DNA of 64,000 nt from an uncultured Acidobacteriota bacterium (GCA_947259165.1 CAMYKY010000003.1:27262-91261), one strand, 5' to 3'. Shown: positions 10,551 through 48,932, counted from the stretch's first letter. The notes: generated by a model not told the origin, from the letters alone. Numbers and translations are program-made.

Positions 10551-10559
10551 GGAGCGGGG

Positions 10560-29764: not shown

Positions 29765-30193
29765 TCACTCAACGGGCGAACGCCAATCTTCGATCGTCAA
29801 GCCCTCGAAGCTTTCATAGTGCCGAACGTTTGCCGTTACCAAAACCAAGGCGTTGACCCGCGCGATCGCTGCGATCTGCCCGTCCACAAATGACGGAGTC
29901 TTGCCCTCGCCAGTGAGCCGGGCTCGTTCCGACGCATGCCACGCTGCCGCAGCATCGTCGTAGCCGAGAACGGGTACGTGAGGGGCGACCACATCCTGTA
30001 GATATTTTTCCAATGCGGTGCGGCGGTGCGAAGCCGGAAGTCGATAGCAGCCGAACAAGAGCTCGTGCCACACGACGGACGCGGTGGCAACGGAACCCTC
30101 GGTTTCAATGAGCCGTTGTCGAACCCCAGGGTCGGGGTTCGCTTTTGCTGGCTCCGAGAGTACGTTTGTGTCGAGAAGGTACCCGAGGCTCAA
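29765..30193 (-). CDS. vapC: PIN-domain toxin VapC
   Basis: 142 aa. N-terminal LLDTNVLSE with the conserved acidic residues of PIN nucleases. 4-nt overlap with the upstream antitoxin. Confidence 0.88.
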   Translation of the reverse strand: MSLGYLLDTNVLSEPAKANPDPGVRQRLIETEGSVATASVVWHELLFGCYRLPASHRRTALEKYLQDVVAPHVPVLGYDDAAAAWHASERARLTGEGKTPSFVDGQIAAIARVNALVLVTANVRHYESFEGLTIEDWRSPVE

Positions 30194-30471
30194 AGCTGAA
30201 CAACCCGACCCGCCGATCGATCCCGAACGTCCTCGTAAACCGACTCGATATCCAACTCGTCGAGATCAACCGCGGTTCGAAACTCCTCGAGCGCCTGGCT
30301 CAACGGGATGGAGCTCTTCGCGTGGGTACGATACCGTTCGGTCGATATCAGCACCGCGACCGGCTCACCCCGTCTCGTCAAGGTCACCGTCAGGCCCCGC
30401 TCGGCATCGCGCACGAGTGACGGCAGGTGCTCCCGCGCGTCAGATATCGAGACCTCTTTTTCGTGCTTCAT
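30190..30471 (-). CDS. Phd/YefM-family antitoxin
   Basis: 93 aa. VSISDAREHLPSLVRDAERG..VTLTRRGEPVAVLIS is the Phd/YefM N-terminal fold. Positioned as the cognate antitoxin of vapC. Confidence 0.85.
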   Translation of the reverse strand: MKHEKEVSISDAREHLPSLVRDAERGLTVTLTRRGEPVAVLISTERYRTHAKSSIPLSQALEEFRTAVDLDELDIESVYEDVRDRSAGRVVQL

Positions 30472-30746: not shown

Positions 30747-31475
30747 TCAGTTCACGCCGCGCCACGACAGCTTACTGCCGAACCAATACCGGAACACGAT
30801 CGCGTGCTGGGGCGCCCACCCACCATCGCGTGATTGCGTGTATTGGAACTGATAGGCGAGGCGTACCTGTTGGGCATTCGGGAGATTCCAAAGAAACCCG
30901 ATGCGGGTCCGGGTGCGAAAAAAGCCTCGAGCGTGGTCGAAGAAAAGATCCGTCTGACCCCACGGTTCGTTTTTGACGCCGTCCCCACGCAGCTCTAGGC
31001 GGGTCCGGTAGACGTTGAAGTCCGGGATCGAGTCGCCGCGGAAATGGCGTTCGTAGAACAGACCGCCCCGGAAGCGGACCTTTTTATCCGCGAAGCGGAA
31101 GAATAGCTTGCGGAGCAGAAACTGAACCCGCTCATCGATGACCACGTCTCCGAAGTCGTCTTCACGTCCGATCAAAAAGAACCGGCTGCGTAGGTTCCAG
31201 TCCTCGTTGAACAGGACGGTCGCTTCCGTCGTCACCCGCGTCATGGTGCCCGAGTTGAGCTCTTGCTCGTCGGTTCTTATCCACGGCGTGACCGTCCACC
31301 CCACCTTTTCCCAGTCTCGAATCGTATAGATGAACTCGGCCCAGAGAGCGACCTCATCCCAGAAACGTGTGTCGTCCTGAGCCTGCCCTGCGCGGGGAAT
31401 GCAAAGAGCCATCAGCAATGCGCCTACGATGATTCCACGCTTCGGTGCTACCCTGCGATCCATCAACCAATCCAC
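30747..31475 (-). CDS. DUF2490-like outer-membrane beta-barrel protein
   Basis: Signal peptide (ALLMALCIPRAGQAQ). Alternating beta-strand pattern, YRTRLELRG and a C-terminal aromatic-rich strand. Confidence 0.55.
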   Translation of the reverse strand: MDWLMDRRVAPKRGIIVGALLMALCIPRAGQAQDDTRFWDEVALWAEFIYTIRDWEKVGWTVTPWIRTDEQELNSGTMTRVTTEATVLFNEDWNLRSRFFLIGREDDFGDVVIDERVQFLLRKLFFRFADKKVRFRGGLFYERHFRGDSIPDFNVYRTRLELRGDGVKNEPWGQTDLFFDHARGFFRTRTRIGFLWNLPNAQQVRLAYQFQYTQSRDGGWAPQHAIVFRYWFGSKLSWRGVN

Positions 31476-31493
31476 TCCACAGCAACTTATACT

Positions 31494-31691
31494 TCAATCT
31501 AATAGCCAAGTTTCGGCAAGTTCTTCGCCCAAACCTTGACGACAACGACCAGCCAACCCAAGCCGACCGACCGCCCACTGGAACCCGGCGGTGATGGTCC
31601 CGACGGCCACCAGCAGTAGATAGACGTAGCCGATGACCCCCAGCCAGACGAGTCCCGTGGGTTTTTGGTCTTCTGTTCCGTCGACTTTCAT
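31494..31691 (-). CDS. Small membrane protein (hypothetical, may itself be a stump)
   Basis: 65-aa ORF with one strong TM helix (LVWLGVIGYVYLLLVAVGTITAGF), located between the DUF3604 remnant and the barrel gene. Confidence 0.35.
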   Translation of the reverse strand: MKVDGTEDQKPTGLVWLGVIGYVYLLLVAVGTITAGFQWAVGRLGLAGRCRQGLGEELAETWLLD

Positions 31692-31760
31692 CGTGGATCT
31701 CCTAGGCGGGGCCGGGGCTGTCGGACAAGGTCGAGCCTCGCACCGACAGCCCGGTGGTCC

Positions 31761-33024
31761 TTAGTTGAGCGGCGAGTACCAGATCGGCGAGGCATACGCC
31801 CGATCCTGGGTCGTCGCCGGGGATGACCTCGTAGTTGTGTCGACCAACCTTGGGCTCGGTCTTCGCATACTTACCGAAGTAGTTTTCCTCGCGTGAGGTG
31901 GCGAGCCCAGTATGTGTGTCTGTCGCTCCGCTCAGTCCGAATTGGTAAGGGTTGACGCCGACCTCCTCACCCAACTTGAGGCCGATCTTGAGAGCGGAGC
32001 GCGCGTACTCGCATTGGAGCATCCAGTCTTCTTTGGCCGCCGAGCCGGTGAGGTTCGCCACATCCCAATTCTCGTAGTCGGCGAACTCGTCTTCGGTCGA
32101 CAGCAGCGGGTGCGTTTCGCCGTCGCCTTTCATCTGCGTTACTTCGATGATGGGCTCCCAGCGTATCCGCGATTCCGCGTAGGCACGCGTGATCGGATTG
32201 CCGCGGATGTCCGTTTCCGCGAACATCGTGCCGTTGCTCACGTTGCCGTTGTGGGGGATGGCGAGAGCGTTGCCGCCCGTCTAGTCTTCGTAGGCGGCGA
32301 GGTACTTCCACAGGTCCTCGGGATCTTCGCTGTCGAACGTCGTGTAAGGAAGGACCTGGCTCGTCTTGTCGGCACCGTCTCGGAAGACGACGACTCGATG
32401 GAGGTTGTTGCCGCCGGGAAGGGAGGACCACTCGAAGCCGGTCATAGCGGAGAACCGACCCGGGTCGTCGTAGCCGTCGGCGGTCTGGAGGAACGCTTCC
32501 CAAATGCTGCGCGTCGCCTCGGGAGAGTCGAATCGAGCAGTGAGGGTCGCAGCGTCGTTCAGAATGGACCCGAAGGCCTCCTGCGCACCTTCCGGACCGG
32601 CGTTGAACTTCTCGTACAGCCAGCGTCCATACTCACTCGCGAGCAGGAGCGGATCCGCATCGCGGATCATCGGCGCAAGACCAATGTACTCGGCGTGGTC
32701 GGTGACCACGAGGAAATCGAGCGGCCGGACGAGCTGCACGCGCCGACCGGAATTCGAGACGATGGTCTCACCCCGTGCAAACCCGTACGCGTCATCCACG
32801 TCCAGCGTCGTGCCGATCAAACCCGCATCGGGTGAGTACTTCGTATGAAGATGCGTGTCGCCGAACAGAACACGGTCAGGATAGGATTTGTCAGCATAGG
32901 GAGAGTAGGGCTTCGCATCCGCGAAATCCTCGTCGGTGACGACGATCTCTGACTGTGCGAGCAGGCGCCCCGCATGGGTCGTGAAACCGAGAACTACCAA
33001 CATGGTCATGAGTGCTTTAGTCAC
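31761..33024 (-). pseudogene. DUF3604 (PHP-like metallo-phosphoesterase) gene disrupted by an in-frame TAG and an internal deletion/frameshift
   Basis: Signal peptide plus FGDTHLHT...VVTDHAEY N-terminal half (32281..33024). In-frame TAG at 32281-32283 sits directly before the conserved TGGNALAIPHNGNVSNG. The family C-terminal motif (RAYASPIWYSPLN-stop at 31761) is present only in a different frame, and about 150-200 codons are missing. Confidence 0.72.
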
Positions 33025-33060: not shown

Positions 33061-33327
33061 TTAAGTTTCGTCACGCGATGTCCTGCCGAGACGCATCGAG
33101 AGGTAAGGCGAGGCTCCAACGAGGCGCACGCCGTCGGCGGCCATGGAGCGAAGCAACACCAGCCCCCGATCGTCCACCGTGATGACACCCTCCAACTCCA
33201 GCGTCAGCGGCGGTTGGGCGTTCCGGCAGCAAGTCTCTAGCTCGGAAACTTCCGGACCCGACAACGCTCCGGCGACCCGAAGCATCATTCCAGAGTCGAG
33301 CGGTTCCTGAACGATTCGCAACGTCAT
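33061..33327 (-). CDS. Small STAS-like (anti-sigma-antagonist fold) protein, copy 2
   Basis: 88 aa from ATG 33327 (MTLRIVQEPLDSGMMLRVAGALSGPEV...LELEGVITVDDRGLVLL). Paralog of 34756..35022. Confidence 0.62.
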   Translation of the reverse strand: MTLRIVQEPLDSGMMLRVAGALSGPEVSELETCCRNAQPPLTLELEGVITVDDRGLVLLRSMAADGVRLVGASPYLSMRLGRTSRDET

Positions 33328-33339
33328 GCAGGCGCGTCT

Positions 33340-33355
33340 TGCAGAGACTGTGCCA
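33340..33355 (-). promoter_or_regulatory. Sigma54 -24/-12 promoter (copy C)
   Basis: Minus strand TGGCACAGTCTCTGCA with GG-N10-GC spacing exact and -24 a perfect TGGCAC. The ATG at 33327 is 13 nt after the GC. Confidence 0.65.
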
Positions 33356-33407
33356 CCGCGGTCGTCGGCGTAGACACGGCCTACGCCGCGCACTCCCTGC
33401 TTCGCCA

Positions 33408-33459
33408 GCGATATGTCGCCGCGCAGCGAGACGATATTTCGCGCATGCGCGAAATATCG
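33408..33459 (-). promoter_or_regulatory. Enhancer-like site (copy C) including a perfect 28-bp palindrome
   Basis: CGATATTTCGCGCATGCGCGAAATATCG (33432-33459) is perfectly self-complementary. GCGATATGTCGCC (33408-33420) is a further half-site. The centre lies about 90 nt upstream of the -24 element. Confidence 0.5.
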
Positions 33460-33919
33460 CCGCCAGGTGGATCTCGAATGGACGTTCATTGTGGTCGCTC
33501 TTCGTCGGACTCCTGGATCTCTTCCAGAAGAATCCGAGGCGTGAAATCGTGGAGGTCCTTTGCCGAGGTGAACCGTTCTCTTTTCCCCGACTCTAAGTGC
33601 TCGATCCGCCCGCGGAAGAGCCACGATCGGTATTCGCATCGCTGCTGAGTTGAACGAGAAACGCGCGGGGCGACGGCAGCGAGGTAACCATGTGGGCATA
33701 ATCGCCGGGCGGTCGCCGCGAGTCATGAAGGAGTTGTGAGATTTAGTTGAAAGTCACCATTTCGAATGCAATCGCCAGCGACCTGGGCGACGAACGACTG
33801 AGGCGTGACGAGCGGCACGTCGACGTGCGTCCGCAGGTCTGGCAACTCTTGCGTTTTTCCCTCCGAGCGCCCGGGTCAGCTTCTGAGCTAGGTTTCGATG
33901 ATGGTTTTCCGAGTCGCTG

Positions 33920-34675
33920 TCAGCGACCTATGGGGACGGTGGAGAAAAAACCGATTTGGAGAGCGTGGTTGTACTCGATGACGCTTCCGCTGCCTTGTTG
34001 AACGAGCTGCAGGAGATAGCCGAGCTCGAGCCTGCCAGCGCGCCCCATGTTGATACCGAACGCCGCATAAGATCGATTCTGGTCGAAGAAGTTGTTTTGG
34101 ACGTTCTTCCCAAAGTTGATCATTAGCTCGTTGTAAAGCTGCGCCGAGTACCGTGTGTCCGTGCCGATAGGGATCGAAGCCTTGAGGAAATAGCGAAACC
34201 GATTCCGGTAAGTGTGGCCGTCCAAAGTGCCTTCACCGACGTCGTTCGGGACTTTGTTGCCGACAAAGCGTTGTTCGAGCCGGTAACGGTGGACGAGCCC
34301 CGTTCGCCCGAGACGTTGCCAGAGGATGAGCTGCTCCCACAGCCGGTTCTCGGGAACGTTGAATCCCGGTGCCGACCCCTCTCCCGCAGACGTATCGATG
34401 TACGCATACCCGCCCGAGAATTGAACCGTATCGTTGAGGTCGAAATTGATCCCGGGCCTCAACAGTGTTTGGCTCCGCGAGTCGCCCAATCCGTGGACGC
34501 GAAACTGCCCATCGAAGTGAACGCCCCAACCTCCGTCTCCGATCGGATGGTCGCCAAAGTACATGTACCAGCTACGGTAGTCTGTCACCGAGGTACGGCC
34601 TTCGGACTGCGCGGCGGCGACACCGTCGCCGAGGGACGTCACGGCAAAAGCGGCGACCAATAGATAGCGTAGCAT
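33920..34675 (-). CDS. DUF2490 outer-membrane beta-barrel protein
   Basis: ATG 34675 gives the signal peptide MLRYLLVAAFAVTSLGDGVAAAQ. Family-typical HRYRLEQRF, YRNRFRY and a C-terminal aromatic strand. Confidence 0.72.
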   Translation of the reverse strand: MLRYLLVAAFAVTSLGDGVAAAQSEGRTSVTDYRSWYMYFGDHPIGDGGWGVHFDGQFRVHGLGDSRSQTLLRPGINFDLNDTVQFSGGYAYIDTSAGEGSAPGFNVPENRLWEQLILWQRLGRTGLVHRYRLEQRFVGNKVPNDVGEGTLDGHTYRNRFRYFLKASIPIGTDTRYSAQLYNELMINFGKNVQNNFFDQNRSYAAFGINMGRAGRLELGYLLQLVQQGSGSVIEYNHALQIGFFSTVPIGR

Positions 34676-34755
34676 TCGGCCGCGCAGCAAACCGCACAGC
34701 CAATTTCGGTTCACGCCTCGTGGCCGCTGGACATCTGTCAATGTTCGTATTCCGT

Positions 34756-35022
34756 TCAGTGTGCGTCGCCGAATGGCCTGCCGAGACGCATAGAGAGATA
34801 GGGCGAGGTACCAACGAGCGTCGCGCCGGCGGCAGCCACCGAAAGAAGCAACACCAAGCCCGGCTCGTCGGCCGAGACGACGCCCTCGAGCTCTAGCGTC
34901 ACCGGCAGCTTGGCTTTCCGGCAGCAAGCGTCGAGCTCGGCAACTTCCGCACCCGACAGAGCTCCGGCGACCCGAAGCATCGTTCCCGGGTCGAGCGATT
35001 CCACAACGATCCTCAGCGTCAT
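34756..35022 (-). CDS. Small STAS-like protein, copy 1
   Basis: 88 aa from ATG 35022 (MTLRIVVESLDPGTMLRVAGALSGAEV...). The longer ORF start at 35040 is the TTG of the -12 element. Confidence 0.62.
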   Translation of the reverse strand: MTLRIVVESLDPGTMLRVAGALSGAEVAELDACCRKAKLPVTLELEGVVSADEPGLVLLLSVAAAGATLVGTSPYLSMRLGRPFGDAH

Positions 35023-35035
35023 GCAGCTCACGTAT

Positions 35036-35051
35036 TGCAAACAGCGATCCA
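35036..35051 (-). promoter_or_regulatory. Sigma54 -24/-12 promoter (copy A)
   Basis: Minus strand TGGATCGCTGTTTGCA with exact GG-N10-GC spacing and a perfect TTGCA. The ATG at 35022 is 14 nt after the GC. Confidence 0.62.
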
Positions 35052-35133
35052 GCGTGAAAACCGGACCGCTACACGCGTAAGTCCGTTGTTCAGGGCTTCA
35101 GCGGAGACCTTCGGAAGGCGTGCGTCGGCAGAT

Positions 35134-35191
35134 GCGGCGAAATCTCACCGGGCTCCCTTGAGATGTCGTTCTTTGCGCGACATTTCACGCG
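35134..35191 (-). promoter_or_regulatory. Enhancer-like site pair (copy A)
   Basis: Minus strand CGCGTGAAATGTCGCGC (35191-35175), N31, then GAGATTTCGCCGC (35146-35134). Positionally equivalent to copy B. Confidence 0.45.
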
Positions 35192-35214
35192 ACGGTCGTC
35201 GGGCGTCCGAGAAA

Positions 35215-35595
35215 CTAGCTCGAGCTCGTTCTTGGAACGAGAAGGTTGGCGACTTGGCGGTACGGCACCGATAGTTTCAGTCGGATGAGCTCCGAAAGTG
35301 AAACACCCTCCGCGGCAGCTTCGCGCTTCAAAGCAGCGTGAAGGCTCCTTGGCACCGCGACCGTGAGCCGGCCGGATGCCGATTTGATGTCTTGCTCGAA
35401 CCCGGACACGTCGCGTAGCCGCAGCTCTTCGTAGCGCTCCGTGAGCCAGCGATACACGTCGGAGTCGACTATTTTTTCTCGGTCCTCACGCGTTTCCCCG
35501 AGGACGCTGAGCTCGCCCTTGGGGCCGAAGAATCGCGACGAGAATGTGGTGGCATCGGTGCCGCGCTGAAGCATCTGCGACAGGAAGGACGACAT
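35215..35595 (-). CDS. HicB-like / ribbon-helix-helix antitoxin-type protein (no adjacent toxin)
   Basis: ATG 35595 with GGAGG upstream. C-terminal RHH block GRLTVAVPRSLHAALKREAAAEGVSLSELIRLKL. The longer ORF to 35898 would run antisense through hipB. Confidence 0.62.
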   Translation of the reverse strand: MSSFLSQMLQRGTDATTFSSRFFGPKGELSVLGETREDREKIVDSDVYRWLTERYEELRLRDVSGFEQDIKSASGRLTVAVPRSLHAALKREAAAEGVSLSELIRLKLSVPYRQVANLLVPRTSSS

Positions 35596-35679
35596 TTCAG
35601 GCGACAAGCCTCCACTCAGAAATGCAAGAAAAGTGGAAAAGGATTGCGATAGCTTGGCATTTAGCGGTCGATATGATAC

Positions 35680-35721
35680 GCTCTTAAGAGCATAATAAGT
35701 ATTATACGGAGCTCTTAAGAG
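35680..35721 (+). promoter_or_regulatory. Candidate HipB operators / divergent promoter region
   Basis: GCTCTTAAGAGC (35680-35691) and GCTCTTAAGAG (35711-35721) contain the same perfect palindrome CTCTTAAGAG, with centres 31 bp apart. ATAATA-AG-TATTAT lies between them. The second site ends 4 nt before the hipB ATG. Confidence 0.55.
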
Positions 35722-35725
35722 ATAC

Positions 35726-36067
35726 ATGACCGCCAAAAACACACTGACCACAGCGCCACCGTATCCGGTTGAGCAAGCGCTCGAGCGCCTTGGGGCAAAT
35801 CTACGGACTGCCAGATTGCGTCGCAACCTAACCATCCAGAGCGTCGCCGAGAAGATCGGAACGGGCCCGCGCCCAGTCTCGGATGCCGAGAAAGGCAAAC
35901 CGTCAACGAGCGCCGCGGTCTATGTCGCGCTCCTTTGGGCCTATGATCTGCTGGATCAGTTGAGCGAAGTCGCCGGACCCGAGTCCGATGAAGAAGGGAT
36001 GGCGCTGTCCCTGTTACGGGAGCGCTCCCGCGCCCGAAACAGGAGTGAGCTGGACAGTGACTTCTAG
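35726..36067 (+). CDS. hipB: XRE-family HTH antitoxin HipB
   Basis: 113 aa. HTH block LRTARLRRNLTIQSVAEKIGTGPRPVSDAEKG. Immediately upstream of, and overlapping, hipA. Confidence 0.85.
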   Translation: MTAKNTLTTAPPYPVEQALERLGANLRTARLRRNLTIQSVAEKIGTGPRPVSDAEKGKPSTSAAVYVALLWAYDLLDQLSEVAGPESDEEGMALSLLRERSRARNRSELDSDF

Positions 36068-37334
36068 AGCCAGCGCACGCGAGTGCTACGTCTACCTGAC
36101 GCTGCCGGGTGAAACCGAGTTCGTTACCGCCGGGCGATTCGTGCTCGAGTCCGGCCGTCATGGTATTCCCACAGGAAGGTTCGTTTATGGTCGCAGCTAT
36201 CTCGAACGGGAAAACGCTGTGCCGATCGACCCGCATCAGCTCAAGTTGAGCAACCGAACCTACGCGACCACCATCCTCAACGGCGTCTTCGGCGCGTTGC
36301 GCGATGCCAGTCCTGATCACTGGGGTCGGCGCGTCATCGAGAAGTACGCCGGGAAAACGCAGCTTGGCGAGATCGACTATTTGCTCGAATCACCCGACGA
36401 CCGCGCCGGCGCTCTCGGATTCGGCTTGAACCGCAATCCCCCGGCCCCGCGCCGCAAGTTCAACCGGACGATGGCTCTAGAACGGCTGCAGCAACTCGCC
36501 GACGCGATTATCGCCGACGAGGATCTACCAGCGAACTCTGATGCTCAACAGACCGAAGATCTGTTGCTCCATGGCACTTCGATGGGCGGCGCCCGCCCCA
36601 ATACCGTAATCGAAGATCATGCCGGCCTGTGGCTAGCAAAATTCAACCGGCCTGATGACAAGTGGAACCATGCACGTGTCGAGCAGGCGATGTTGGTACT
36701 TGCCCGTGAGTGCGGTCTGCAGACTTCCGAAAGTAAGGTCACGACCATCGGCGGTCGCGACGTCTTGCTCGTCAAACGCTTCGACCGCCAAAAGACGACT
36801 GAGGGTTACCGGCGGGCTCGAATGCTCAGCGCCTTGACGTTACTGCGCGCGGAAGATACTCATCGAGATCGCGATAGGTGGTCGTACGTTTCGCTCGTTG
36901 AAGAACTACGACGACTCTCGGCTCAGCCTCGTAAAGACGCGCCCGAGCTCTTCCGACGCATGTGTTTCAACGCTCTGATTTCGAACAGCGACGACCATCC
37001 GCGAAACCATGCGGCGATCGCAAAGGACGTGGAATGGAAGCTCTCGCCCGCGTACGACCTCGTACCGTCCGTGCCGGTCAGTATCGAGCGCCGCGATCTG
37101 GCTCTCACATGCGGCGACATGGGGCGCTACGCCCACGCCGATAACCTACTCTCGCAAAGCGCACGCTTTCTGCTTGAAGTCGAGGGCGCGAAACAGACCA
37201 TCGCTGCGATGGAGCAAACCATTCGAGCCAAATGGTACGACGTCGCTCGCGGGGAAGGCGTCAACGAAAAAGACTGCGAGAAGATCGCTGGCGCCTTTAA
37301 CTATCCCGGATTCCGGCTCGCAAGCACTGAATAA
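36057..37334 (+). CDS. hipA: HipA-family serine/threonine kinase toxin
   Basis: GTG 36057 (AGGAG 11 nt upstream) overlaps the hipB end. HipA N-terminal coupling domain (CYVYLTLPGE..GRFVYGRSYL), catalytic NSDDHPRNHA and SPAYDLVP. Confidence 0.88.
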   Translation: MTSRASARECYVYLTLPGETEFVTAGRFVLESGRHGIPTGRFVYGRSYLERENAVPIDPHQLKLSNRTYATTILNGVFGALRDASPDHWGRRVIEKYAGKTQLGEIDYLLESPDDRAGALGFGLNRNPPAPRRKFNRTMALERLQQLADAIIADEDLPANSDAQQTEDLLLHGTSMGGARPNTVIEDHAGLWLAKFNRPDDKWNHARVEQAMLVLARECGLQTSESKVTTIGGRDVLLVKRFDRQKTTEGYRRARMLSALTLLRAEDTHRDRDRWSYVSLVEELRRLSAQPRKDAPELFRRMCFNALISNSDDHPRNHAAIAKDVEWKLSPAYDLVPSVPVSIERRDLALTCGDMGRYAHADNLLSQSARFLLEVEGAKQTIAAMEQTIRAKWYDVARGEGVNEKDCEKIAGAFNYPGFRLASTE

Positions 37335-37336
37335 CG

Positions 37337-38539
37337 TCAGCTCTCGACCTCCATGTCGTCGCCGTCGGGGCTTCCCACGACTTCGTAGAACGCGCGGCCA
37401 TTCGGGTCTTCGACCTCCTGGAAGAACACGGTGTCGAACTGGTAGTAGGTGACGCCTTCTTCCTGCACCGTGGTCACGACGTCGGACACGCTGAGGAGCG
37501 AGTCGACCTGGGCGCCGAGCTCGGGCTCGCCGACCACGTAGCCGGTATTACCGTCTTCTTCGTACTGCACGTAGAAGTTGTAGTTGACGTAGTGGTAGGT
37601 CTCGCCATCGGCCTCGAACGAGGGCACACCCGCCGGGATCGCTTCGAGCTCTGTCTGGGGTGGCGTCGGCTCGACGCGATAGATGACACGACCGGCATCG
37701 TTGACATCCTCGGTGAAATACATCTCGTCGAACTGATAGACGACATCGTCGCCCTCTGCTTCGCGGGTGGCATCGCTCGGAACCGAGCTGACTTCGGCTC
37801 CCACCGGCGGCGTCACCACAACGTAGCCTCCGCCAGGAGCGCTCTGCCAAAACGCCCACTCGGCGTAAAAGTAGGTCGCGCCGTCCACGGTAACCGTCTC
37901 GGGGTCTTCGGGCAACGCGTCCACTCGATGACCCACCGGAGTCGAGGTCAGGATGTAGCCCTCTTCGCCATCGTAAATGACTTTCCGATACCACGGGTTC
38001 ACACGAACATACGTGACCGAGTTGTAGGTGTGGTTCGTCGACTGGCTCGCCGTCGCCGCGAACATGACCGACGATATGAAAACGAAGCTGACCCAGCGAC
38101 GCCGGTACCACATCCAGCGACGCCAGAAAACGTGGTGACGCCATGCCGCACGCCGGAAGGCGCGAGAGCGGTGGACTCGCCGAGCTCGGGCGCGGCTGCG
38201 ATGACGCGCGGAGCGGCGTGCGGCGTTTCTGGTCGCGGTGCGGCGTCCACTGGCACGTGCCGCGGAGCGGCCGGGTGGACGGCGGGCTGCCGGTGGTCGA
38301 CTCGCGGCCCGCGAAGGTGCAGGGCCACCACGCGAGGGGTTCGAGCGATTCATCGAGCCCGAGCGTGACGGGGGCCGTCGATTCACCGACGACCGGCTCC
38401 TGGCGGAGCGTCCTCCTCTGGAGCCGCCACGGCCTCTTTGGGCGTGGGCGATGGCCTGAAGCGGAGGCAAGATGGGCACGGCGATCTCGAGGGTCAGCAC
38501 CATGATCGCGACCCATCGGATTTTCTTGAGTGATTTCAT
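37337..38539 (-). CDS. Hypothetical membrane/secreted protein: Arg-rich basic region, TM helix and acidic beta-repeat domain
   Basis: 400-aa ORF 37 nt downstream of the DUF2092 gene. N-terminal signal/TM, about 130 aa of R/S/P/A low complexity, a second TM, then about four repeats of the pattern G..Y.V...P.G..V..LP......V.G..YY. Confidence 0.55.
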   Translation of the reverse strand: MKSLKKIRWVAIMVLTLEIAVPILPPLQAIAHAQRGRGGSRGGRSARSRSSVNRRPPSRSGSMNRSNPSRGGPAPSRAASRPPAARRPPGRSAARASGRRTATRNAARRSARHRSRARARRVHRSRAFRRAAWRHHVFWRRWMWYRRRWVSFVFISSVMFAATASQSTNHTYNSVTYVRVNPWYRKVIYDGEEGYILTSTPVGHRVDALPEDPETVTVDGATYFYAEWAFWQSAPGGGYVVVTPPVGAEVSSVPSDATREAEGDDVVYQFDEMYFTEDVNDAGRVIYRVEPTPPQTELEAIPAGVPSFEADGETYHYVNYNFYVQYEEDGNTGYVVGEPELGAQVDSLLSVSDVVTTVQEEGVTYYQFDTVFFQEVEDPNGRAFYEVVGSPDGDDMEVES

Positions 38540-38576
38540 CAGACGATCCTTCGCGCGAGCACGTACTCGTTGACCT

Positions 38577-39362
38577 TCATTCGTTCACCGGCACCACCTC
38601 GACGCGCTCGGCGTCCGGAGGTGGCGAGAATTGTGACAGAGCATCGTCGGGCAAGCTCGTGGTCCACTTTCGATAGCGCGCCGAGTACGACGGTGCGCCG
38701 TTCTCCTCAGTAAAGTTGATGTGGCGCCGCACCGGAAACGACTCGTCTCCCTGGCGAATCCAAACTTCCAGATCGGCACCAGGCTTGCGAAGCGCAACGT
38801 GGTCGGTCCAAAAGCCATCGACCCATGCTTCGCCGACGTATTGCACCAAGACGTCTTCACCGAGCCAAACGTCCACGGGGTCACCGACGAGCATATCGGC
38901 GAACGGCACATCCAGGTCGTACTCGTAGACCAGGCTCTCCACCGCGTCGGAGATGTTCGGCGGCAGCTCTATCTGGCCCCAAACGTTGGCGGGCTGCTTC
39001 AGCAAGCTGAACTCGCCCCGGTCGAACCACGCGGAATCCACCGTCGCGTCATCGTGGAGCGTCATCCAAAACAACCGGCCAGGTTTGTGCGCCGCCATCC
39101 GCTGGACCATGTCGAAGTGCAGCATCTGACCGGACTCCTGGACCGCCTCGTACGTGACCAGCGCCTCGAAGCCGAGCTGATCATGCGAGGAGAGAAACTC
39201 CAACATCCGCGACATCACGTCGCGCCCTTCGGGCATGGTGTCGCCATCGCCGGTCAAAGGCTCCGGACTCCAGAGCTCGACATCGTCGGGGGGAGGTGGC
39301 GCCGCCCGACAGCCGGCAAGAAACGCCAAGGCGACGACGAAAGATACGATTCGCAATGTCAT
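38577..39362 (-). CDS. DUF2092 (LolA-fold) lipoprotein
   Basis: ATG 39362 gives the lipobox signal MTLRIVSFVVALAFLAGC. The body has the DUF2092 pattern (HKPGRLFW..DSAWFDRGEFSLLKQP..VWGQIELP..DLDVPFADML). Confidence 0.62.
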   Translation of the reverse strand: MTLRIVSFVVALAFLAGCRAAPPPPDDVELWSPEPLTGDGDTMPEGRDVMSRMLEFLSSHDQLGFEALVTYEAVQESGQMLHFDMVQRMAAHKPGRLFWMTLHDDATVDSAWFDRGEFSLLKQPANVWGQIELPPNISDAVESLVYEYDLDVPFADMLVGDPVDVWLGEDVLVQYVGEAWVDGFWTDHVALRKPGADLEVWIRQGDESFPVRRHINFTEENGAPSYSARYRKWTTSLPDDALSQFSPPPDAERVEVVPVNE

Positions 39363-39375
39363 GGAGACCACGCAC

Positions 39376-39391
39376 TGCAAACAACGCTCCA
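39376..39391 (-). promoter_or_regulatory. Sigma54 -24/-12 promoter (copy B)
   Basis: Minus strand TGGAGCGTTGTTTGCA with exact GG-N10-GC spacing. The ATG at 39362 is 14 nt after the GC. Confidence 0.62.
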
Positions 39392-39463
39392 GTCGCGTTG
39401 CGCTCGTAAGCCGTGTAGTTTCAGCGTAACGACGCTATTGCTGGGGCGTCGCACACCGTCCGA

Positions 39464-39519
39464 CGCGATATCTCACCGGGTCTCATCAGGATGTCGTTCA
39501 TTGCGCGATATTTCGCGCG
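39464..39519 (-). promoter_or_regulatory. Enhancer-like site pair (copy B)
   Basis: Minus strand GCGCGAAATATCGCGC (near-palindrome, 7 of 8 pairs) within 39519-39503, N31, then GAGATATCGCG (39474-39464). The centre lies about 120 nt upstream of the -24 element. Confidence 0.45.
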
Positions 39520-39533
39520 TTCCGGCCTCGAAA

Positions 39534-40121
39534 CTACTCGACCCAGCCCAGAACGTTGCGCGCGATGGACCAGCGCGGCTCGAGAGGTCTGGTATCCTTG
39601 CCCAAGATCCAGTGATCGTAGAGCCTTTGGATCGTCCCGTTCTCTTTCTGGATCTCGATCCAGACATTCAGAAAAGCGACGGTGTTCACGTCCCCGCTCG
39701 CTACCGCGTACGCGAGCGGTGTGCGCCGGCGCACGTCCTCCGGCGCGACCACGGCGTAGTGTGGATAGAGCAGGCTCCAGGCGGAGCCGCGCTCGGCGGT
39801 GGTCACGTAGGCGTCCTCGTCGTTCGAAGCCAGACTTTGACCAAACTCCTCGATATCGCGAAGGAGTCGAAGGCGAGCGTGAGGCACGAGAGCCTGCGCT
39901 CGCGCCACCAGAAATGGATCGTCGAGGATCGCGAGCGTCAGCGACTCCATCTGACTGATTTTCTCGAGACTGACGAAGTCGTGTCGCCGATAATCGCGAA
40001 CCAGCAACGCGAGCGTCTCGACGCTCGAGGCCGACCCCGAGCTGGCCGCGGAGCTCGAGCGCGCGTCCGCCGGGCTCGCGGCACTCCACTCGATGCAGGC
40101 CGCGGTGCCCGAAGGCCAAAG
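39534..40121 (-). pseudogene. Periplasmic substrate-binding-like lipoprotein lacking its 5' end (low-confidence family call)
   Basis: Open frame from the stop at 40122 reads LWPSGTAAC (lipobox-like), a Ser/Ala linker and a 157-aa body ending YDHWILGKD..PRWSIARNVLGWVE. There is no start codon or signal-peptide n/h-region upstream. The only start in frame is TTG 40007. Confidence 0.35.
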
Positions 40122-41862: not shown

Positions 41863-43164
41863 ATGAACCTATATATTCACGAAGGCTACAGCGAAGAACA
41901 CCGTCGCGGGCTCGAGCTCGGCGAGGAGATCGCGACCCTTTCGGCGCAGCTCCAGGTGGCTACTTATCGGCTGTTGGTGATGCTGCGGGAGTTCGACGAC
42001 CTCGGGGGTTGGGCGTTGCCCGGGCTCAAGTCGTGCGCGCATTGGCTCTCGTGGCGCACCGGTCTCGACGCGGGCGCGGCGCGCGAAAAGCTCCGGGTCG
42101 CTCACGCGCTCGCGAAGCTGCCGCTCATCAGCGAGTCGATGAGCCAAGGGGACATCTCGTACTCGAAAGTTCGGGCGGTTACGCGGGTGGCGACCCCGGA
42201 GAATGAACAAGACCTTCTCCAGATCGCGCTCGGAGGAACGGCGGGACAAGTCGAGCGCATCGTGCGTGCGTGGCGCAAGATCGATCTCGAGACCGAAAAA
42301 GAGCTTGCGAACGAGCAGCAGGCCCGCGCCGAGGTCTCGACGTTCGAGGACGAGGACGGGATGCTCATCGTTCGAGCCAAGTTGCCGCCGGACATCGGCG
42401 CGGTGTTTCTCAAAGCCCTCGAGGCGGCGTCGGACGTCGTCTATCGCAAAGACACGGAGCGCCCGCTCGGGCATCGCCGAGCGGAAGCGCTGAAGCTCAT
42501 CTCCGAGGCGGCGCTGACGAGCGAGCTCGACGCCGGTAGTAGCGCCGACCGGTATCAGGTGGTCGTCCACGTGGATGAGCCGGTGCTCGAAGCTCCGGAG
42601 CAGGCAGGGCAATCCGCGCTCGAAGGGGGTATTGGCGTTTCCGCGGAAACGTCTCGGCGGATCGCGTGCGACGCCTCTATCGTCGAGATGAAACACGATG
42701 ACAGCGGCAATGTGCTCGACGTCGGGCGAAAAACGCGGAAGATCACACCGTCGATCCGCCGTGCGCTCGATGCACGGGACCCGACGTGCGTGTGGCCGGG
42801 GTGTCACTGCAAGTATGTTCAGGCCCATCACATCAAGTTTTGGGCGGAGGGAGGCGGAACGAACCTCGATAACCTCTGTAACCTGTGTCATTACCATCAT
42901 CACCTGGTTCATGACGGCGGCTATCGCGTCGATATGCTCGCTGACGGCGAGTTTCGCTTTACCCATCCCCGGGGGTGGGTCATCCCAGCGGTGCCGACTC
43001 CGGTGAGACCACCCGATACATTGCTCGCCGACATCGAGGTTGCCGAGAACGCGGGCAACGCCGGCTGGGGCGGCGAGCGGATCGACATGACCTATTTCGT
43101 GGAGACCACATGGCGCCCGAAAAGCGCCTACGAATCGAGCGAGTCGGCTTCTCGCGATCCCTGA
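41863..43164 (+). CDS. DUF222 + HNH endonuclease protein (REP13E12-like selfish-gene family)
   Basis: N-terminal DUF222 pattern (AQLQVATYRLLVMLREFDDLGGW..GLKSCAHWLSWRTG). C-terminal HNH (CVWPGCHCKYVQAHHIKFWAEGGGTNLDNLCNLCHYHHHLVH). Preceded by an AT-rich, SD-less upstream region. Confidence 0.88.
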   Translation: MNLYIHEGYSEEHRRGLELGEEIATLSAQLQVATYRLLVMLREFDDLGGWALPGLKSCAHWLSWRTGLDAGAAREKLRVAHALAKLPLISESMSQGDISYSKVRAVTRVATPENEQDLLQIALGGTAGQVERIVRAWRKIDLETEKELANEQQARAEVSTFEDEDGMLIVRAKLPPDIGAVFLKALEAASDVVYRKDTERPLGHRRAEALKLISEAALTSELDAGSSADRYQVVVHVDEPVLEAPEQAGQSALEGGIGVSAETSRRIACDASIVEMKHDDSGNVLDVGRKTRKITPSIRRALDARDPTCVWPGCHCKYVQAHHIKFWAEGGGTNLDNLCNLCHYHHHLVHDGGYRVDMLADGEFRFTHPRGWVIPAVPTPVRPPDTLLADIEVAENAGNAGWGGERIDMTYFVETTWRPKSAYESSESASRDP

Positions 43165-43265: not shown

Positions 43266-44672
43266 TCATTGTTTCTCGGGCGTCGGTATCGGCGAGGGCT
43301 CTTGCTCGTCCCGGTGAGCGAGGCCGTATTTCTGCATGCGGTAGATGAGTGTGTTGCGGGTGATGTGAAGAAATCTTGCCGCGCGGGTCTGATTCCCGTC
43401 GTTCCTGCGGAGCGCTTCCCGGATCAGATACTCTTCGACCCGGTCGAGCGCGATACCTTCCACGGGTAGATTCAACACGAAATCGTCGATGTCCGACGAC
43501 TGTTTGGTGAGAAACGCCGGCAAGTCGTCGAGCGTCACCACCCGGCCAGCGGTCAACGCGGTCAGCCGCTCCATGAGATTTTCGAGCTCGCGGATGTTCC
43601 CGGGCCAGGGGTAGGCGTCGAAGACCTTCAAGACTTGTCGGTCCAGCCTCAGTGTCTTGCCGAATCGCTCGCCGTATTTTCCGAGGAACTGGTTCGCGAG
43701 CAAAGGAATGTCTTCGCGTCGTTCTCGTAACGGCGGGAGCGTAATCGGAATGACGCTGAGACGATAGTAGAGGTCTTCGCGGAATTGGTCTTGTCGGATT
43801 AACTTCTCGAGCTCGCGGTGCGTCGCGGCGATGATGCGGACGTCGACCTTGATCGGGTGCGCCGCCCCTACCTTGTCGATCTCTTTTTCCTGAAGGAGGC
43901 GCAGCAACTTGACTTGGATCGAAGGCTCGAGATCGCCGATCTCATCGAGAAAGACCGTCCCGCCCTTGGCTACCTCGATCTTCCCTTTGCGATCGGACGT
44001 GGCACCGGTAAACGCACCGCGGGTATGACCAAACAGCTCCGACTCCAGAAGGCTTCCGGGGATGGCGGCGCAGTTGACCACCACGAGGGGTTGGTTTTTC
44101 CTCGGGCTGTTGTAGTGGATTGCTTTAGCGAGGAGCTCCTTCCCGGTTCCACTTTCACCCAAGATCAGAACCGTCGAGTCGAATTTCGCCGCCTGCGCGG
44201 CGGTGGCAAACACTTTCTGGATCGCGCTCGAGGCGCCGCTCATGTTCTCGAAGTGAAGACGCTCCGTGACTGCTTGTTTCAGTTGGCGGTTCTCGTGTCG
44301 TAGCTTGCGGAGCTCTAGAGCGCGGTCGACGACGAGTTTGAGCTCGGCGCGATTGACGGGCTTTTGTAGATAGTCGAAGGCGCCCTCGCGCATCGCCTCG
44401 ACCGCATTGTCGACGTCGGCGTGGGCGGTGGCGATGATGACAGGAACGTCGGAATCAATCGCGAGCACGCGGGTCAAAAGCTCGAGGCCGCTGAGCTCGG
44501 CCATGCGCATGTCGCTGATGACGAGCTCGAATGGATTCTCGGTAAACGCATCGAGCGCCGCCTTCGGGTCGCCACACGACGTCGTCTCGAACCCCGCTTC
44601 TTGAAGCGTGTATTCGACGATGCGCCGGAAGCTAGCGTCATCGTCGACGATGAGGATTCTTTCAGCCGTCAT
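43266..44672 (-). CDS. NtrC-family sigma54-dependent response regulator
   Basis: ATG 44672 (MTAERILIVDDD). REC domain, AAA+ with Walker A GESGTGKE and the sigma54-contact GAFTGA, and a C-terminal Fis HTH. The start overlaps the kinase stop (ATGA). Confidence 0.92.
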   Translation of the reverse strand: MTAERILIVDDDASFRRIVEYTLQEAGFETTSCGDPKAALDAFTENPFELVISDMRMAELSGLELLTRVLAIDSDVPVIIATAHADVDNAVEAMREGAFDYLQKPVNRAELKLVVDRALELRKLRHENRQLKQAVTERLHFENMSGASSAIQKVFATAAQAAKFDSTVLILGESGTGKELLAKAIHYNSPRKNQPLVVVNCAAIPGSLLESELFGHTRGAFTGATSDRKGKIEVAKGGTVFLDEIGDLEPSIQVKLLRLLQEKEIDKVGAAHPIKVDVRIIAATHRELEKLIRQDQFREDLYYRLSVIPITLPPLRERREDIPLLANQFLGKYGERFGKTLRLDRQVLKVFDAYPWPGNIRELENLMERLTALTAGRVVTLDDLPAFLTKQSSDIDDFVLNLPVEGIALDRVEEYLIREALRRNDGNQTRAARFLHITRNTLIYRMQKYGLAHRDEQEPSPIPTPEKQ

Positions 44673-45871
44673 GGTGTGGCGCCATCTCCGTTCGGCCCGT
44701 TCGGTAAAGCGATGACGAAGCAAGCGCCGTCCGAGCGCGAGGACTCCGCGAGGTGGATTTGCCCGCCTTGCGCTTCGATCAGCTTGCGTGCGATAGCGAG
44801 ACCGAGTCCGGTGCCGCGTGGTTTGGTCGTGAAGAACGGCTCGAACAGTCGAGCGCGAGCGTCCGAGGGGACGCCGGGCCCATCGTCCTCCACGAGGATT
44901 CGAAGCTGGTCTGTCGCCTCCTCGAGCCGAATCGTGATCGTGCCTCCCGACGGCATGGCCTGAATGCCGTTGAGGACGACGTTGAGCAGCGCTTGCTGCA
45001 CCTGGGACGCATCGACTCGGATGTCCGGTAGTGTCGACGCGCTCTCGGTCACAATGGATACCGAGTGGCGGGACGCTTCTTGGGAGCAAAGTGTTTTCAG
45101 CGAAGCTGCGACGTCGCGAAGGTCGCTCGGCTCGCGTACCGGCTTGGGGGTGCGCGCGAACTGAAGGAACTCGTTCACGATGTGCTCGAGCTGGTTCAGC
45201 TCTTTGTGAACAATCTCCGCGAACTCTTGTTTGTCGTTTCCTGGAGACGATTCCGCGAACAATATCTCGAGCGACGCTTTGATGGACGCGAGCGGGTTTT
45301 TGATCTCGTGCGCGAGCCCGGCAGAGAGCTCGCCGAGTGCTTTGAGCCGATCCGCTCGCCGCAGTTGTTCGAAGCTCTCTTGAAGCTGCGTGTACGCTTC
45401 GGCGAGCTCGCGCGCGGTGCGCTCCTGGTGCTCGCGAGAGCGCCGCTCGGATTCGGCCAACAGCCCCACCACGACAGCGACCACCTGGAACATGACGAGC
45501 TCCGCGTATTGAGCCTGCATGTACTCGTCGTGGACGCCCAGCATCTCGCCCCAATCCAAGACGATGTGAGGCAGATAGCTGGCCGCCGAAAGAATCGAGG
45601 TCGCGAGCGCTCCCCGGAGGCCGAACCAGTGCGCCGCAGCGAAGATCGGCAGGTAGTAGAGACGCTGGTAGACGTTGTGGAGCCCGATCGCTTCCACCGA
45701 GGTGAGATGATGGGCTAGGGCGGTGGCCGCGACGGCTCCCCCGATAAACACCAGCCTCCACAGCGTTGCGCCCGACGAGGGCCCGACGACGCCTGGGGTT
45801 CGAGCGTCCATTGTTTTCGTCATCCCGTCCACGGTCGTCCTCTCGAGCTCGACTTGCAAGGTGTGCGCCAT
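44669..45871 (-). CDS. Sensor histidine kinase with polytopic membrane N-terminal domain
   Basis: H-box LSAGLAHEIKNPL and N/G boxes (NVVLNGIQAM, DDGPGV, GTGLGLAI). The N-terminal approx. 120 aa are hydrophobic and His-containing, with no large periplasmic loop. Confidence 0.88.
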   Translation of the reverse strand: MAHTLQVELERTTVDGMTKTMDARTPGVVGPSSGATLWRLVFIGGAVAATALAHHLTSVEAIGLHNVYQRLYYLPIFAAAHWFGLRGALATSILSAASYLPHIVLDWGEMLGVHDEYMQAQYAELVMFQVVAVVVGLLAESERRSREHQERTARELAEAYTQLQESFEQLRRADRLKALGELSAGLAHEIKNPLASIKASLEILFAESSPGNDKQEFAEIVHKELNQLEHIVNEFLQFARTPKPVREPSDLRDVAASLKTLCSQEASRHSVSIVTESASTLPDIRVDASQVQQALLNVVLNGIQAMPSGGTITIRLEEATDQLRILVEDDGPGVPSDARARLFEPFFTTKPRGTGLGLAIARKLIEAQGGQIHLAESSRSDGACFVIALPNGPNGDGATP

Positions 45872-45929
45872 GGCGGCAACGCAGCGTTCGCAAACACTTG
45901 CGATCTAAGCCTCGCGCATCGCTGCTGCA

Positions 45930-45960
45930 TTTGCAACAAGCAATGATGGTTTTGCAACAA
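45930..45960 (+). promoter_or_regulatory. Candidate enhancer sites upstream of the cus promoter
   Basis: Direct repeat TTTGCAACAA at 45930-45939 and 45951-45960 (21-bp phasing), about 75-105 nt upstream of the -24 element. A further inverted repeat TCGCAA-N4-TTGCGA lies at 45888-45903. Confidence 0.4.
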
Positions 45961-46034
45961 ATCGACGGTGTGGATTTACTCGTAAATCGAGCGCAAGCCC
46001 TTCTAAACAAGTTACTTGGGCGGATACGGCGCCT

Positions 46035-46050
46035 TGGCTCGAATCTTGCC
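46035..46050 (+). promoter_or_regulatory. Sigma54 -24/-12 promoter in front of cusC
   Basis: TGGCTCGAATCTTGCC with exact GG-N10-GC spacing, 16 nt before ATG 46066 and divergent from the sigma54 two-component operon. Confidence 0.58.
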
Positions 46051-46065
46051 AATAGAGACTACAGT

Positions 46066-47400: not shown

Positions 47401-47410
47401 AGGAACCGTC

Positions 47411-48910: not shown

Positions 48911-48932
48911 CGCTTCGGGCGCCGGACCTAAC

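Follow-up and report, generated by a model that had tools for sequence, protein, structure and literature searches.

Do three similar intergenic segments in an acidobacterial genome represent copies of one regulatory element, and if so, what does this element control? The segments lie within 64,000 nt of DNA from an uncultured Acidobacteriota bacterium (GCA_947259165.1 CAMYKY010000003.1:27262-91261; in the following, the window, with coordinates counted from its first letter), all on the minus strand, and an initial annotation had described them as copies A, B and C of a sigma-54 promoter, enhancer and first-codon module preceding three envelope-protein operons. In our view, they are likely copies of one lineage-specific sigma-54/enhancer cis-regulatory cassette with a transcription start near the ATG, which originated with a family of STAS-like genes, became fused to a lipoprotein gene in copy B and serves a phosphate/envelope regulon.

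In the proposed mechanism, 12-bp dyads would most likely be bound by dimers of a bacterial enhancer-binding protein (bEBP), the dyads being helically phased upstream of a putative sigma-54 promoter of the form CTGG-N8-TTGCA, with the centre of the proximal one 47-102 bp from the GG. This promoter would be placed such that the predicted start falls about 2-5 nt before the ATG, resulting in a leaderless or near-leaderless mRNA. Natively, the cassette would head small STAS-fold genes with an MTLRI(V/T) N-terminus, followed by variable secreted or envelope cargo, and copies A and C would represent two such paralogues with diverged promoter types, while copy B would be an in-frame fusion of the cassette and the first STAS-like codons to a DUF2092 signal peptide. 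The regulon in relatives (pstSCAB, DUF3604, DUF4136) would probably serve phosphate scavenging and envelope remodelling via sigma-54, not via PhoB and sigma-70.

Layout of the cassette in the window

Palindromic GCGAAATATCGC-type sites followed by a GG-N10-GC (-24/-12) element are common to the three segments, and in each of them the start motif ATGAC.TTG.G.ATCGT begins 12-13 nt past the latter element, so that all parts of the annotated common layout were recovered on the minus strand. In copy A, the activator-site block (35137-35188; kept in the relatives L001, L003 and L009) consists of three 12-bp dyads at about 20-bp spacing, GTGAAATGTCGC (35177-35188), the weak ACGACATCTCAA (35158-35169) and GTGAGATTTCGC (35137-35148), and the putative sigma-54 element TGGATCGCTGTTTGCA (35036-35051) has its TGCA 13 nt from the ATG at 35022. 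The block of copy B (39465-39516; kept in L029) shows GCGAAATATCGC (39505-39516) and GTGAGATATCGC (39465-39476) with a centre-to-centre distance of 40 bp, followed by TGGAGCGTTGTTTGCA (39376-39391), again with 13 nt between TGCA and the ATG at 39362. Three strong dyads, GCGATATTTCGC (33449-33460), GCGAAATATCGT (33431-33442) and GCGACATATCGC (33408-33419), make up the block of copy C (33408-33460; kept in L002), where the -24/-12 element TGGCACAGTCTCTGCA (33340-33355) precedes the ATG at 33327 by 12 nt. The perfect 28-bp palindrome reported for this copy was recovered by repeat search at 33432-33459 and is formed by its first two dyads.

Chance can be excluded as the origin of this shared layout, by four features of the window. 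The start motif ATGACNNTGNGNATCGT occurs three times versus 0.09 expected; GCGCGAAATATCGCGC-like sites cluster at the three loci in a window scan, and pairs of the looser 10-mer GAnATnTC(G/A)(C/T) at 15-50 bp distance are confined to these loci and absent from all 100 Markov-simulated windows; three of the eight TGG-N9-TGCA matches are those of copies A, B and C; and repeat searches recover a 55-nt repeat (80%) over the site blocks of A and B as well as a triple 21-nt start block from all three copies. Two details of the annotation went too far. Copies A and B cannot be aligned over nearly all of their approximately 180 nt, as the alignment is confined to the site block and the promoter/start block, with the spacer of about 70 nt being 41% identical and the overall identity amounting to 56%. 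Likewise, the TCGAG(C)TAGTTTC that A and B have in common at the stop codons of their upstream genes does not recur in the A orthologue L001, where CTCGAGCTAAAAACTCG is found instead; the contig of the B orthologue L029 starts only 18 nt before the first site, short of the upstream stop codon. Being absent from L001, TCGAG(C)TAGTTTC was rejected as a mark of a duplication boundary.

Conservation in relatives and architecture of the putative promoter and activator sites

The same architecture is present in 19 copies from the window and from metagenomic relatives (18 tabulated, with the 19th in L030). The relatives comprise A-type (L001, L003) and C-type (L002) contigs, contigs with more distant STAS-like genes (L005, L006, L007, L008), DUF2092 orthologues (L009, L029), two large contigs of one relative (L012, L013) and L030, the STAS-like gene of which is a relative of gene A at profile level only. 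In L007, a second STAS paralogue also stands behind a cassette, and in both L005 and L012 a cassette is located in front of pstS. When 11 copies are aligned, invariant columns are TGG, TGCA, CATGAC, TG and the site cores, whereas the spacers between proximal site and promoter are only 32-49% identical between divergent types. This comparison yields a phylogenetic footprint, with sites, TGG/TTGCA core and ATG retained next to a spacer that is down to about 40% identity. Searching 185,579 species genomes (GTDB) with the strict two-site DNA pattern gave 15 matches, about the number estimated for chance, and no genuine copy; most of these matches fall within coding regions, many of them in a single conserved motif reading like a chemoreceptor signalling domain, and none has a plausibly placed -24/-12 element downstream.

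The GG and GC doublets are exactly 10 nt apart not only in A, B and C, as annotated, but in all 19 copies. The copies also match the extended sigma-54 consensus TGGCAC-N5-TTGCW, with TGGCAC in copy C, L002, L012-12110 and L030 and TGGATCG, TGGAACG, TGGAGCG or TGGCTCG at -24 in the remaining copies, while the -12 box mostly reads TTGCA, apart from CTGCA in C, L002 and L030 and a single TCGCA. On the strength of this conservation, a sigma-54 -24/-12 promoter with remote dyad activator sites, as originally suggested, remains the best reading of the element.

Each activator site is a 12-bp palindrome with the consensus G(C/T)GAnATnTCG(C/T), of which two or three occur per copy. They occupy three positions at intervals of about 20 bp, with 40-42 bp between the outermost, and the middle site is degenerate in most copies, with strong versions in the C type and in L005-pstS. 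Site centres are 47-144 bp from the GG, and the distances of the proximal centre fall into six classes (47, 59, 67, 80, 91 and 102 bp) corresponding to steps of about 11 bp. The mean resultant for helical phasing is R = 0.87 at an 11-bp period, which is modest support, as 1.45% of random six-distance sets phase as well when periods between 10 and 11.5 bp are allowed. Such steps are the face-of-helix behavior expected of an activator that would loop to the promoter, as is established for NifA/NtrC-type systems. In addition, the spacer contains a semi-conserved AAAC...CTTA block about 40-50 bp 5' of the TGG, which might be a candidate site for a bending protein.

Candidate activators

The window encodes a response-regulator bEBP with receiver, AAA+ domain with intact GAFTGA motif and HTH_8 domain. 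Its operon has a canonical sigma-54 promoter of its own, the fourth in the window (TGGCGCACACCTTGCA, 45855-45870, with a 31-nt leader). The GAFTGA-type bEBP and this fourth promoter suggest that the genome uses sigma-54. The histidine kinase and NtrC-type bEBP operon (43266-46000, minus strand) is divergent from a cusCBA-like resistance-nodulation-division (RND) efflux operon (45766-52046, plus strand), the membrane-fusion protein of which carries heavy-metal-binding domains.

This histidine kinase/bEBP pair (43266-45871, minus strand) might itself bind the GCGAAATATCGC sites, making the three operons a local regulon. It is the sole bEBP in the 64 kb and located on the same strand about 4 kb upstream of copy B, and in other bacteria most sigma-54 operons adjoin their own bEBP gene (PMC7438776). 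However, its own promoter carries TTGTTGCAAA twice and no GCGAAATATCGC site, the divergent orientation to a cusCBA-like metal efflux operon is the usual arrangement of ZraR/CusR-type systems, and no bEBP was called in the 13 kb (L005) and 20.7 kb (L012) around the cassettes of these relatives. Among the explanations competing with a dispersed cassette this local regulon fares best, and we still regard it as unlikely. The candidate activator of the cassette is probably encoded elsewhere, as is the case with global regulators.

A start codon adjoining the predicted promoter

The most unusual feature, missed in the initial annotation, is the position of the -12 element only 12-15 nt from the ATG and without a Shine-Dalgarno sequence. 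Counted from the A of TGCA, the ATG follows in 19 of 19 copies after 12-15 nt, in most cases after 13, in six after 12 and in L005-pstS and L030 after 15, while the chance of an ATG in this four-position window is about 0.045 per promoter. All module starts are ATG, and a Shine-Dalgarno-like 4-mer within 20 nt is present at only 1 of 18 of them compared with 30 of 59 other genes on the same contigs (Fisher p = 6e-4, a value that is indicative only). Genes inside the operons have clear Shine-Dalgarno sequences, such as AGGAGGG before DUF3604 and AAGGA before DUF6515. In L012, the promoter-adjacent ATG of pstS opens a full lipoprotein signal peptide in frame.

With the textbook assignment of the GC to -13/-12, the ATG would be at about +3 to +6 and the predicted start 2-5 nt before it, hence transcription probably starts almost on the start codon. 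Because the ATG follows 12-15 nt after TGCA and Shine-Dalgarno sequences are almost lacking, we infer that the mRNAs are leaderless or near-leaderless, where leaderless refers to a 5' leader of 5 nt or fewer, as defined in PMC12754779 citing Beck and Moll 2018. If true, a -12 element abutting the AUG throughout a regulon would couple enhancer-dependent off/on transcription to leaderless translation, a combination that was not found described; likewise, no paper describing a sigma-54 leaderless promoter class was found in our literature search.

Could TGG...TTGCA...CATGAC instead belong to a 5' leader RNA, i.e., a riboswitch, an attenuator or a translational operator, or be recognized by another factor, the actual transcription start lying upstream of it? 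Base pairing of the -12 sequence TTGCA(A/G)T with codons 2-4, (A/G)TTGCG, is conceivable, and two cassettes are followed by leader-peptide-like short open reading frames (ORFs), one of 16 codons before a Shine-Dalgarno-led DUF3604 gene in L012 and one of 10 codons before a Shine-Dalgarno-led DUF4136 gene in L005. Against an RNA element, Rfam models at gathering threshold gave no match in the window, the RNAalifold consensus only reaches -2.39 kcal/mol, its 16 pairs showing no compensatory change, and the dyad sites are likewise without compensatory changes. Moreover, exactly the GG and the (T)GCA at GG-N10-GC spacing are invariant while the bases in between vary. A leader RNA is therefore quite improbable.

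The STAS-like family and the meaning of MTLRIV

The 88-aa products of the first genes behind copies A and C score below the gathering cut-off of the Pfam family STAS_2 (17.8 and 16.6 versus 29.2 bits), whereas a more distant family member, P0265, has a recorded PF13466 match. Despite the sub-threshold scores, their annotation as STAS-like is borne out by the predicted fold, as an AlphaFold2 model with a predicted local distance difference test (pLDDT) value of 79.6 is matched by Foldseek to 6m36, 1th8, 7ch7 and 4hyl (template modelling score 0.62-0.74, E 4e-4), i.e., to RsbV, SpoIIAA, MlaB and other STAS proteins. A word-indexed search identified 10 close relatives, all 10 starting with MTLRIV. 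A profile search in 1.84 billion cluster representatives gave 1060 relatives at E <= 1e-3, 81 of them reaching E <= 1e-10; they are mostly of 80-110 aa, many of which start with MTLRIT, MTLRIV or MxLRI, with MTLRIV being common in the top 70 of the 1060. In GTDB species genomes, peptide patterns retrieved no relative of the STAS-like proteins. Exact look-ups with the STAS-like and DUF2092 proteins of the window likewise retrieved no contig. Not every member of the wider family has the cassette, since a distant homologue in L004 (41% identity) is without it.

Codons 2-6 of the start motif vary synonymously (ACG/ACA/ACC, TTG/CTG, CGA/AGG/AGA/CGC, ATC/ATA and GTT/GTA/GTC), hence MTLRIV is translated and under selection at the protein level. 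On this evidence, it is the conserved first beta-strand of a protein family and not a property of the DNA module. The notion of enhancer, promoter and first codons as one portable unit consequently holds for copy B, where a lipoprotein gene has captured them, and fails for A and C, where MTLRIV is the N-terminus of the family; the latter two are paralogues within the STAS-like family, with separate promoters of diverged type.

Capture of the cassette by a DUF2092 lipoprotein gene

Among 120 DUF2092 homologues, STAS-like N-termini are found only in the closest ones, from the window, L029 and L009. The proteins from the window and L029 begin with MTLRIV or MSLRIV, followed by a lipoprotein signal peptide, and that from L009 starts with MTLRIGQKPFEHQ, corresponding to 13 STAS-like codons. 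In L010 and L011, the orthologues of which are 66-70% identical, the gene is preceded by a Shine-Dalgarno sequence of its own and not by a cassette, and in L012 the DUF2092-DUF6515 pair is located inside a DUF3604 operon downstream of a cassette. Directly 5' of the Shine-Dalgarno-led DUF2092 gene of L010, an apparent tRNA gene is located at 9860-9935. By this distribution, copy B is a promoter with 5' STAS-like codons that was captured in frame by the DUF2092 gene. The L009 cassette has a spacer 87% identical to the A type of L001 and only 43% identical to window copy B, and its site-to-promoter distance is 92 bp compared with 80 bp in the latter. As the L009 spacer thus resembles the A type and not copy B, and differs in distance, the DUF2092 gene acquired the cassette at least twice, unless gene conversion has replaced it. 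Another capture of 5' codons may be represented in L012 (12110-12160), where a cassette (TGGCACGCCGTTCGCA) directly precedes the gene of a 272-aa secreted protein without Pfam family and with an MTTRIL start. Copy B is a clear case of a regulon growing by in-frame capture of a promoter together with N-terminal codons, the foreign codons having become part of a lipoprotein signal peptide.

Could the similarity of the three segments simply be what is left of a STAS-like gene that was recently duplicated, as a segment, together with the DNA preceding it, the motifs being without regulatory function? Genes A and C are indeed paralogous, with 80% DNA identity over a 263-nt repeat recovered by repeat search, and the surrounding region is rich in pseudogenes and toxin-antitoxin pairs, suggesting a rearranging island. 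However, a recent duplication is at odds with spacers of near-random identity next to invariant sites and -24/-12 core, with distances that keep the helical phase and with unrelated genes (pstS, DUF3604, DUF4136) carrying the same architecture, which makes this explanation very improbable. Finally, that the cassette is a small mobile repeat resembling a miniature inverted-repeat transposable element and inserting before genes, for which three copies within 6 kb, the palindromes and the different genes in different relatives might speak, is hardly credible given that the repeat search, which did not extend to direct target repeats, detected no terminal inverted repeats flanking a copy, that the diverged types are stably orthologous across samples (A in L001 and L003, C in L002, B in L029) and that no genuine copy was found among the GTDB genomes with the strict two-site pattern.

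Regulon content and a possible link to phosphate

Behind the STAS-like genes, the cargo varies between DUF2490, DUF3604, an LCAT/PGAP1-like lipoprotein hydrolase, a membrane protein and secreted proteins, of which those in L006 and L030 resemble one another. The PstS, PstC, PstA and PstB proteins of L012 pass the NCBIfam equivalog cut-offs, as does PstS of L005, and near these pst genes the same cassette type is associated with DUF3604, an OprB-like porin, a rotamase, DUF2092, DUF6515, DUF4136 and a Metallophos phosphoesterase. Furthermore, DUF2490 adjoins pstS. The regulon is thus not limited to the three envelope-protein operons initially proposed, as the relatives add pstSCAB. The pstS cassettes of L005 and L012 show remote palindromes and a -24/-12 element in place of a PhoB-type Pho box at a sigma-70 promoter. 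Our literature search gave no paper on sigma-54 control of pst and none on the function of DUF3604, DUF2490, DUF2092, DUF4136 or DUF6515.

That the cassette defines a lineage-specific, sigma-54/bEBP-dependent regulon for phosphate scavenging and the envelope comes close to an even call without quite reaching it. Clearly more tentative is the wider proposition that this sediment lineage runs pst uptake and the DUF3604, DUF2490, DUF2092, DUF6515 and DUF4136 proteins through sigma-54 and a bEBP and not through PhoB and sigma-70, employing a leaderless promoter class and a cassette that has repeatedly been transplanted or converted together with its first codons. If true, this would amount to a replacement of the Pho regulon by sigma-54 and would provide a functional handle, phosphate scavenging and envelope, on five DUF families.

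Several points weigh against a sigma-54 cassette with near-ATG start and phosphate/envelope regulon. With the ATG at +3 to +6 and not at +1, strictly leaderless translation is an extrapolation. The promoter-adjacent ATG is not always the start of the main gene, since L012-5383 (ORF 5411-5461) and L005-9143 (ORF 9171-9203) open only the 16- and 10-codon ORFs preceding Shine-Dalgarno-led genes; these may be leaderless upstream ORFs or relics. Regarding the regulator, rpoN was not found among the ORFs scanned in the window, no bEBP gene adjoins any cassette copy, and the promoter of the bEBP operon in the window is preceded by two direct repeats of TTGTTGCAAA (45930-45939 and 45951-45960) without a GCGAAATATCGC dyad. 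The phosphate link comes from related contigs and not from the window, and no Pho-type sensor was found linked to the cassette. Many of the related contigs are short metagenome assemblies, and the cassette copies are not phylogenetically independent, so that p-values are generous and the statistics merely indicative. In L001, an A-type cassette precedes a C-type STAS gene and DUF3604, hence this contig looks mosaic, due to either recombination between cassettes or an assembly chimera. A second activator-site block (97-150) in the first 700 nt of L001 is joined to an L003-type lipoprotein hydrolase fragment, followed by an RHH gene.

Genes of the three operons and their surroundings

Pfam searches agree with the annotated cargo (weak STAS_2, DUF2490, DUF3604 and DUF2092) and assign the gene at 37337-38539 to DUF6515. 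In operon A, the STAS-like gene (34756-35022, minus strand, as are all operon genes in this section), encoding an 88-aa protein with MTLRIV start and lacking a Shine-Dalgarno sequence, comes first and is followed by a DUF2490 outer-membrane barrel gene (33920-34747; PF10677, E 8e-44), the exact start of which is uncertain. Operon C begins with the paralogous 88-aa STAS-like gene (33061-33327). Its DUF3604 gene (31510-33024) is a pseudogene with Pfam matches at 32281-33024 and 31702-32241, which is interrupted by an in-frame TAG at 32281-32283 (Lys247 in the L012 orthologue) and has lost about 210 aa through an internal deletion, with a frame change near 31820; the last 19 codons of this remnant persist at 31764-31820 in a different frame. 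A search with the DUF3604 sequence against the PDB gave no match. On the 3' side of the remnant, a DUF2490-like barrel gene (30747-31475) scores below the Pfam threshold (21.7 versus a cut-off of 29.8 bits). Operon B consists of the DUF2092 (LolA-like) lipoprotein gene (38577-39362), where the six codons for MTLRIV are followed by its own signal peptide and lipobox, and the DUF6515 gene (37337-38539) with its own Shine-Dalgarno sequence AAGGA, a pairing kept in L009, L010 and L012.

Copy B is abutted by an ORF (39534-40007, minus strand) for about 157 aa without Pfam match, the stop codon of which adjoins the cassette; by eye, it resembles the C-terminal part of a periplasmic binding protein and is probably a gene remnant. 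On the 5' side of copy C, a small ORF (33484-33760, minus strand; FLVQLS...GRIEHLESGKRERF...) is split over two frames in the window and kept in L002 (771-1020). Three modules of toxin-antitoxin type are interleaved with the cassettes (29765-30471 and 35215-35640, minus strand; 35726-37334, plus strand), comprising PIN with Phd/YefM, an RHH/HicB-like protein and an HTH protein with HipA. Together with the pseudogenes and a DUF222 gene (41863-43164), they look like a rearranging island. More distantly, the window contains a tyrosine/homogentisate catabolism cluster (9171-14319, plus strand) with P450, homogentisate 1,2-dioxygenase, fumarylacetoacetase and aminotransferase genes. The relatives of this dioxygenase show 80-85% identity at best, with a mix of Acidobacteria and Proteobacteria at 64-68%.

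Comparison with known systems

Sigma-54 promoters of the NtrC type, with their tandem activator sites, are well established, and the cassette shares with them (e.g., with E. coli glnAp2) the GG-N10-GC core and at least two dyad sites about 70-150 bp upstream on one helical face, as well as a dispersed nutrient-type regulon in place of a single operon adjoining its activator. In contrast to NtrC-type systems, the site sequence is GCGAAATATCGC, the genes behind the cassette comprise pstSCAB, DUF families and STAS-like genes, and the ATG follows 12-15 nt past the -12 element without a Shine-Dalgarno sequence. The PhoB/Pho-box regulon, whose direct-repeat Pho box overlaps the -35 region of sigma-70 promoters, likewise combines pstSCAB with secreted and envelope proteins including predicted phosphoesterases (Metallophos in the relatives studied here), whereas the cassette consists of remote palindromes and a -24/-12 promoter.

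The predicted fold and similar size of the window proteins match the single-domain STAS proteins SpoIIAA, RsbV and MlaB. They differ from these in falling below the STAS_2 threshold and in each heading an operon of secreted proteins, and no partner kinase, anti-sigma gene or ABC ATPase was seen near the STAS-like genes of the window.

In Myxococcota, three conserved activator sites and a sigma-54 promoter by which PexR controls ahpC and katB have been found by comparative genomics (PMC12754779). Several upstream sites with a sigma-54 promoter kept across a lineage are common to this system and the cassette. However, the bEBP gene flanks the target of PexR and the leaderless transcript discussed there is sigma-A dependent (PMC12754779), whereas no adjacent bEBP was found for the cassette and the predicted sigma-54 promoter itself abuts the ATG.

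In Deinococcus-Thermus and Actinobacteria, a promoter element adjoining the ORF gives leaderless mRNA (PMC12340547). These promoters and the cassette have in common a fixed short distance from the downstream promoter element to the ATG and the lack of a Shine-Dalgarno sequence, with the difference that the former use a sigma-70 -10 box and the latter a putative sigma-54 -12 box. Sigma-54 promoters with remote activator sites as such are textbook knowledge; what distinguishes the present cassette is the placement of the ATG, the link to pstSCAB and the apparently repeated in-frame capture.

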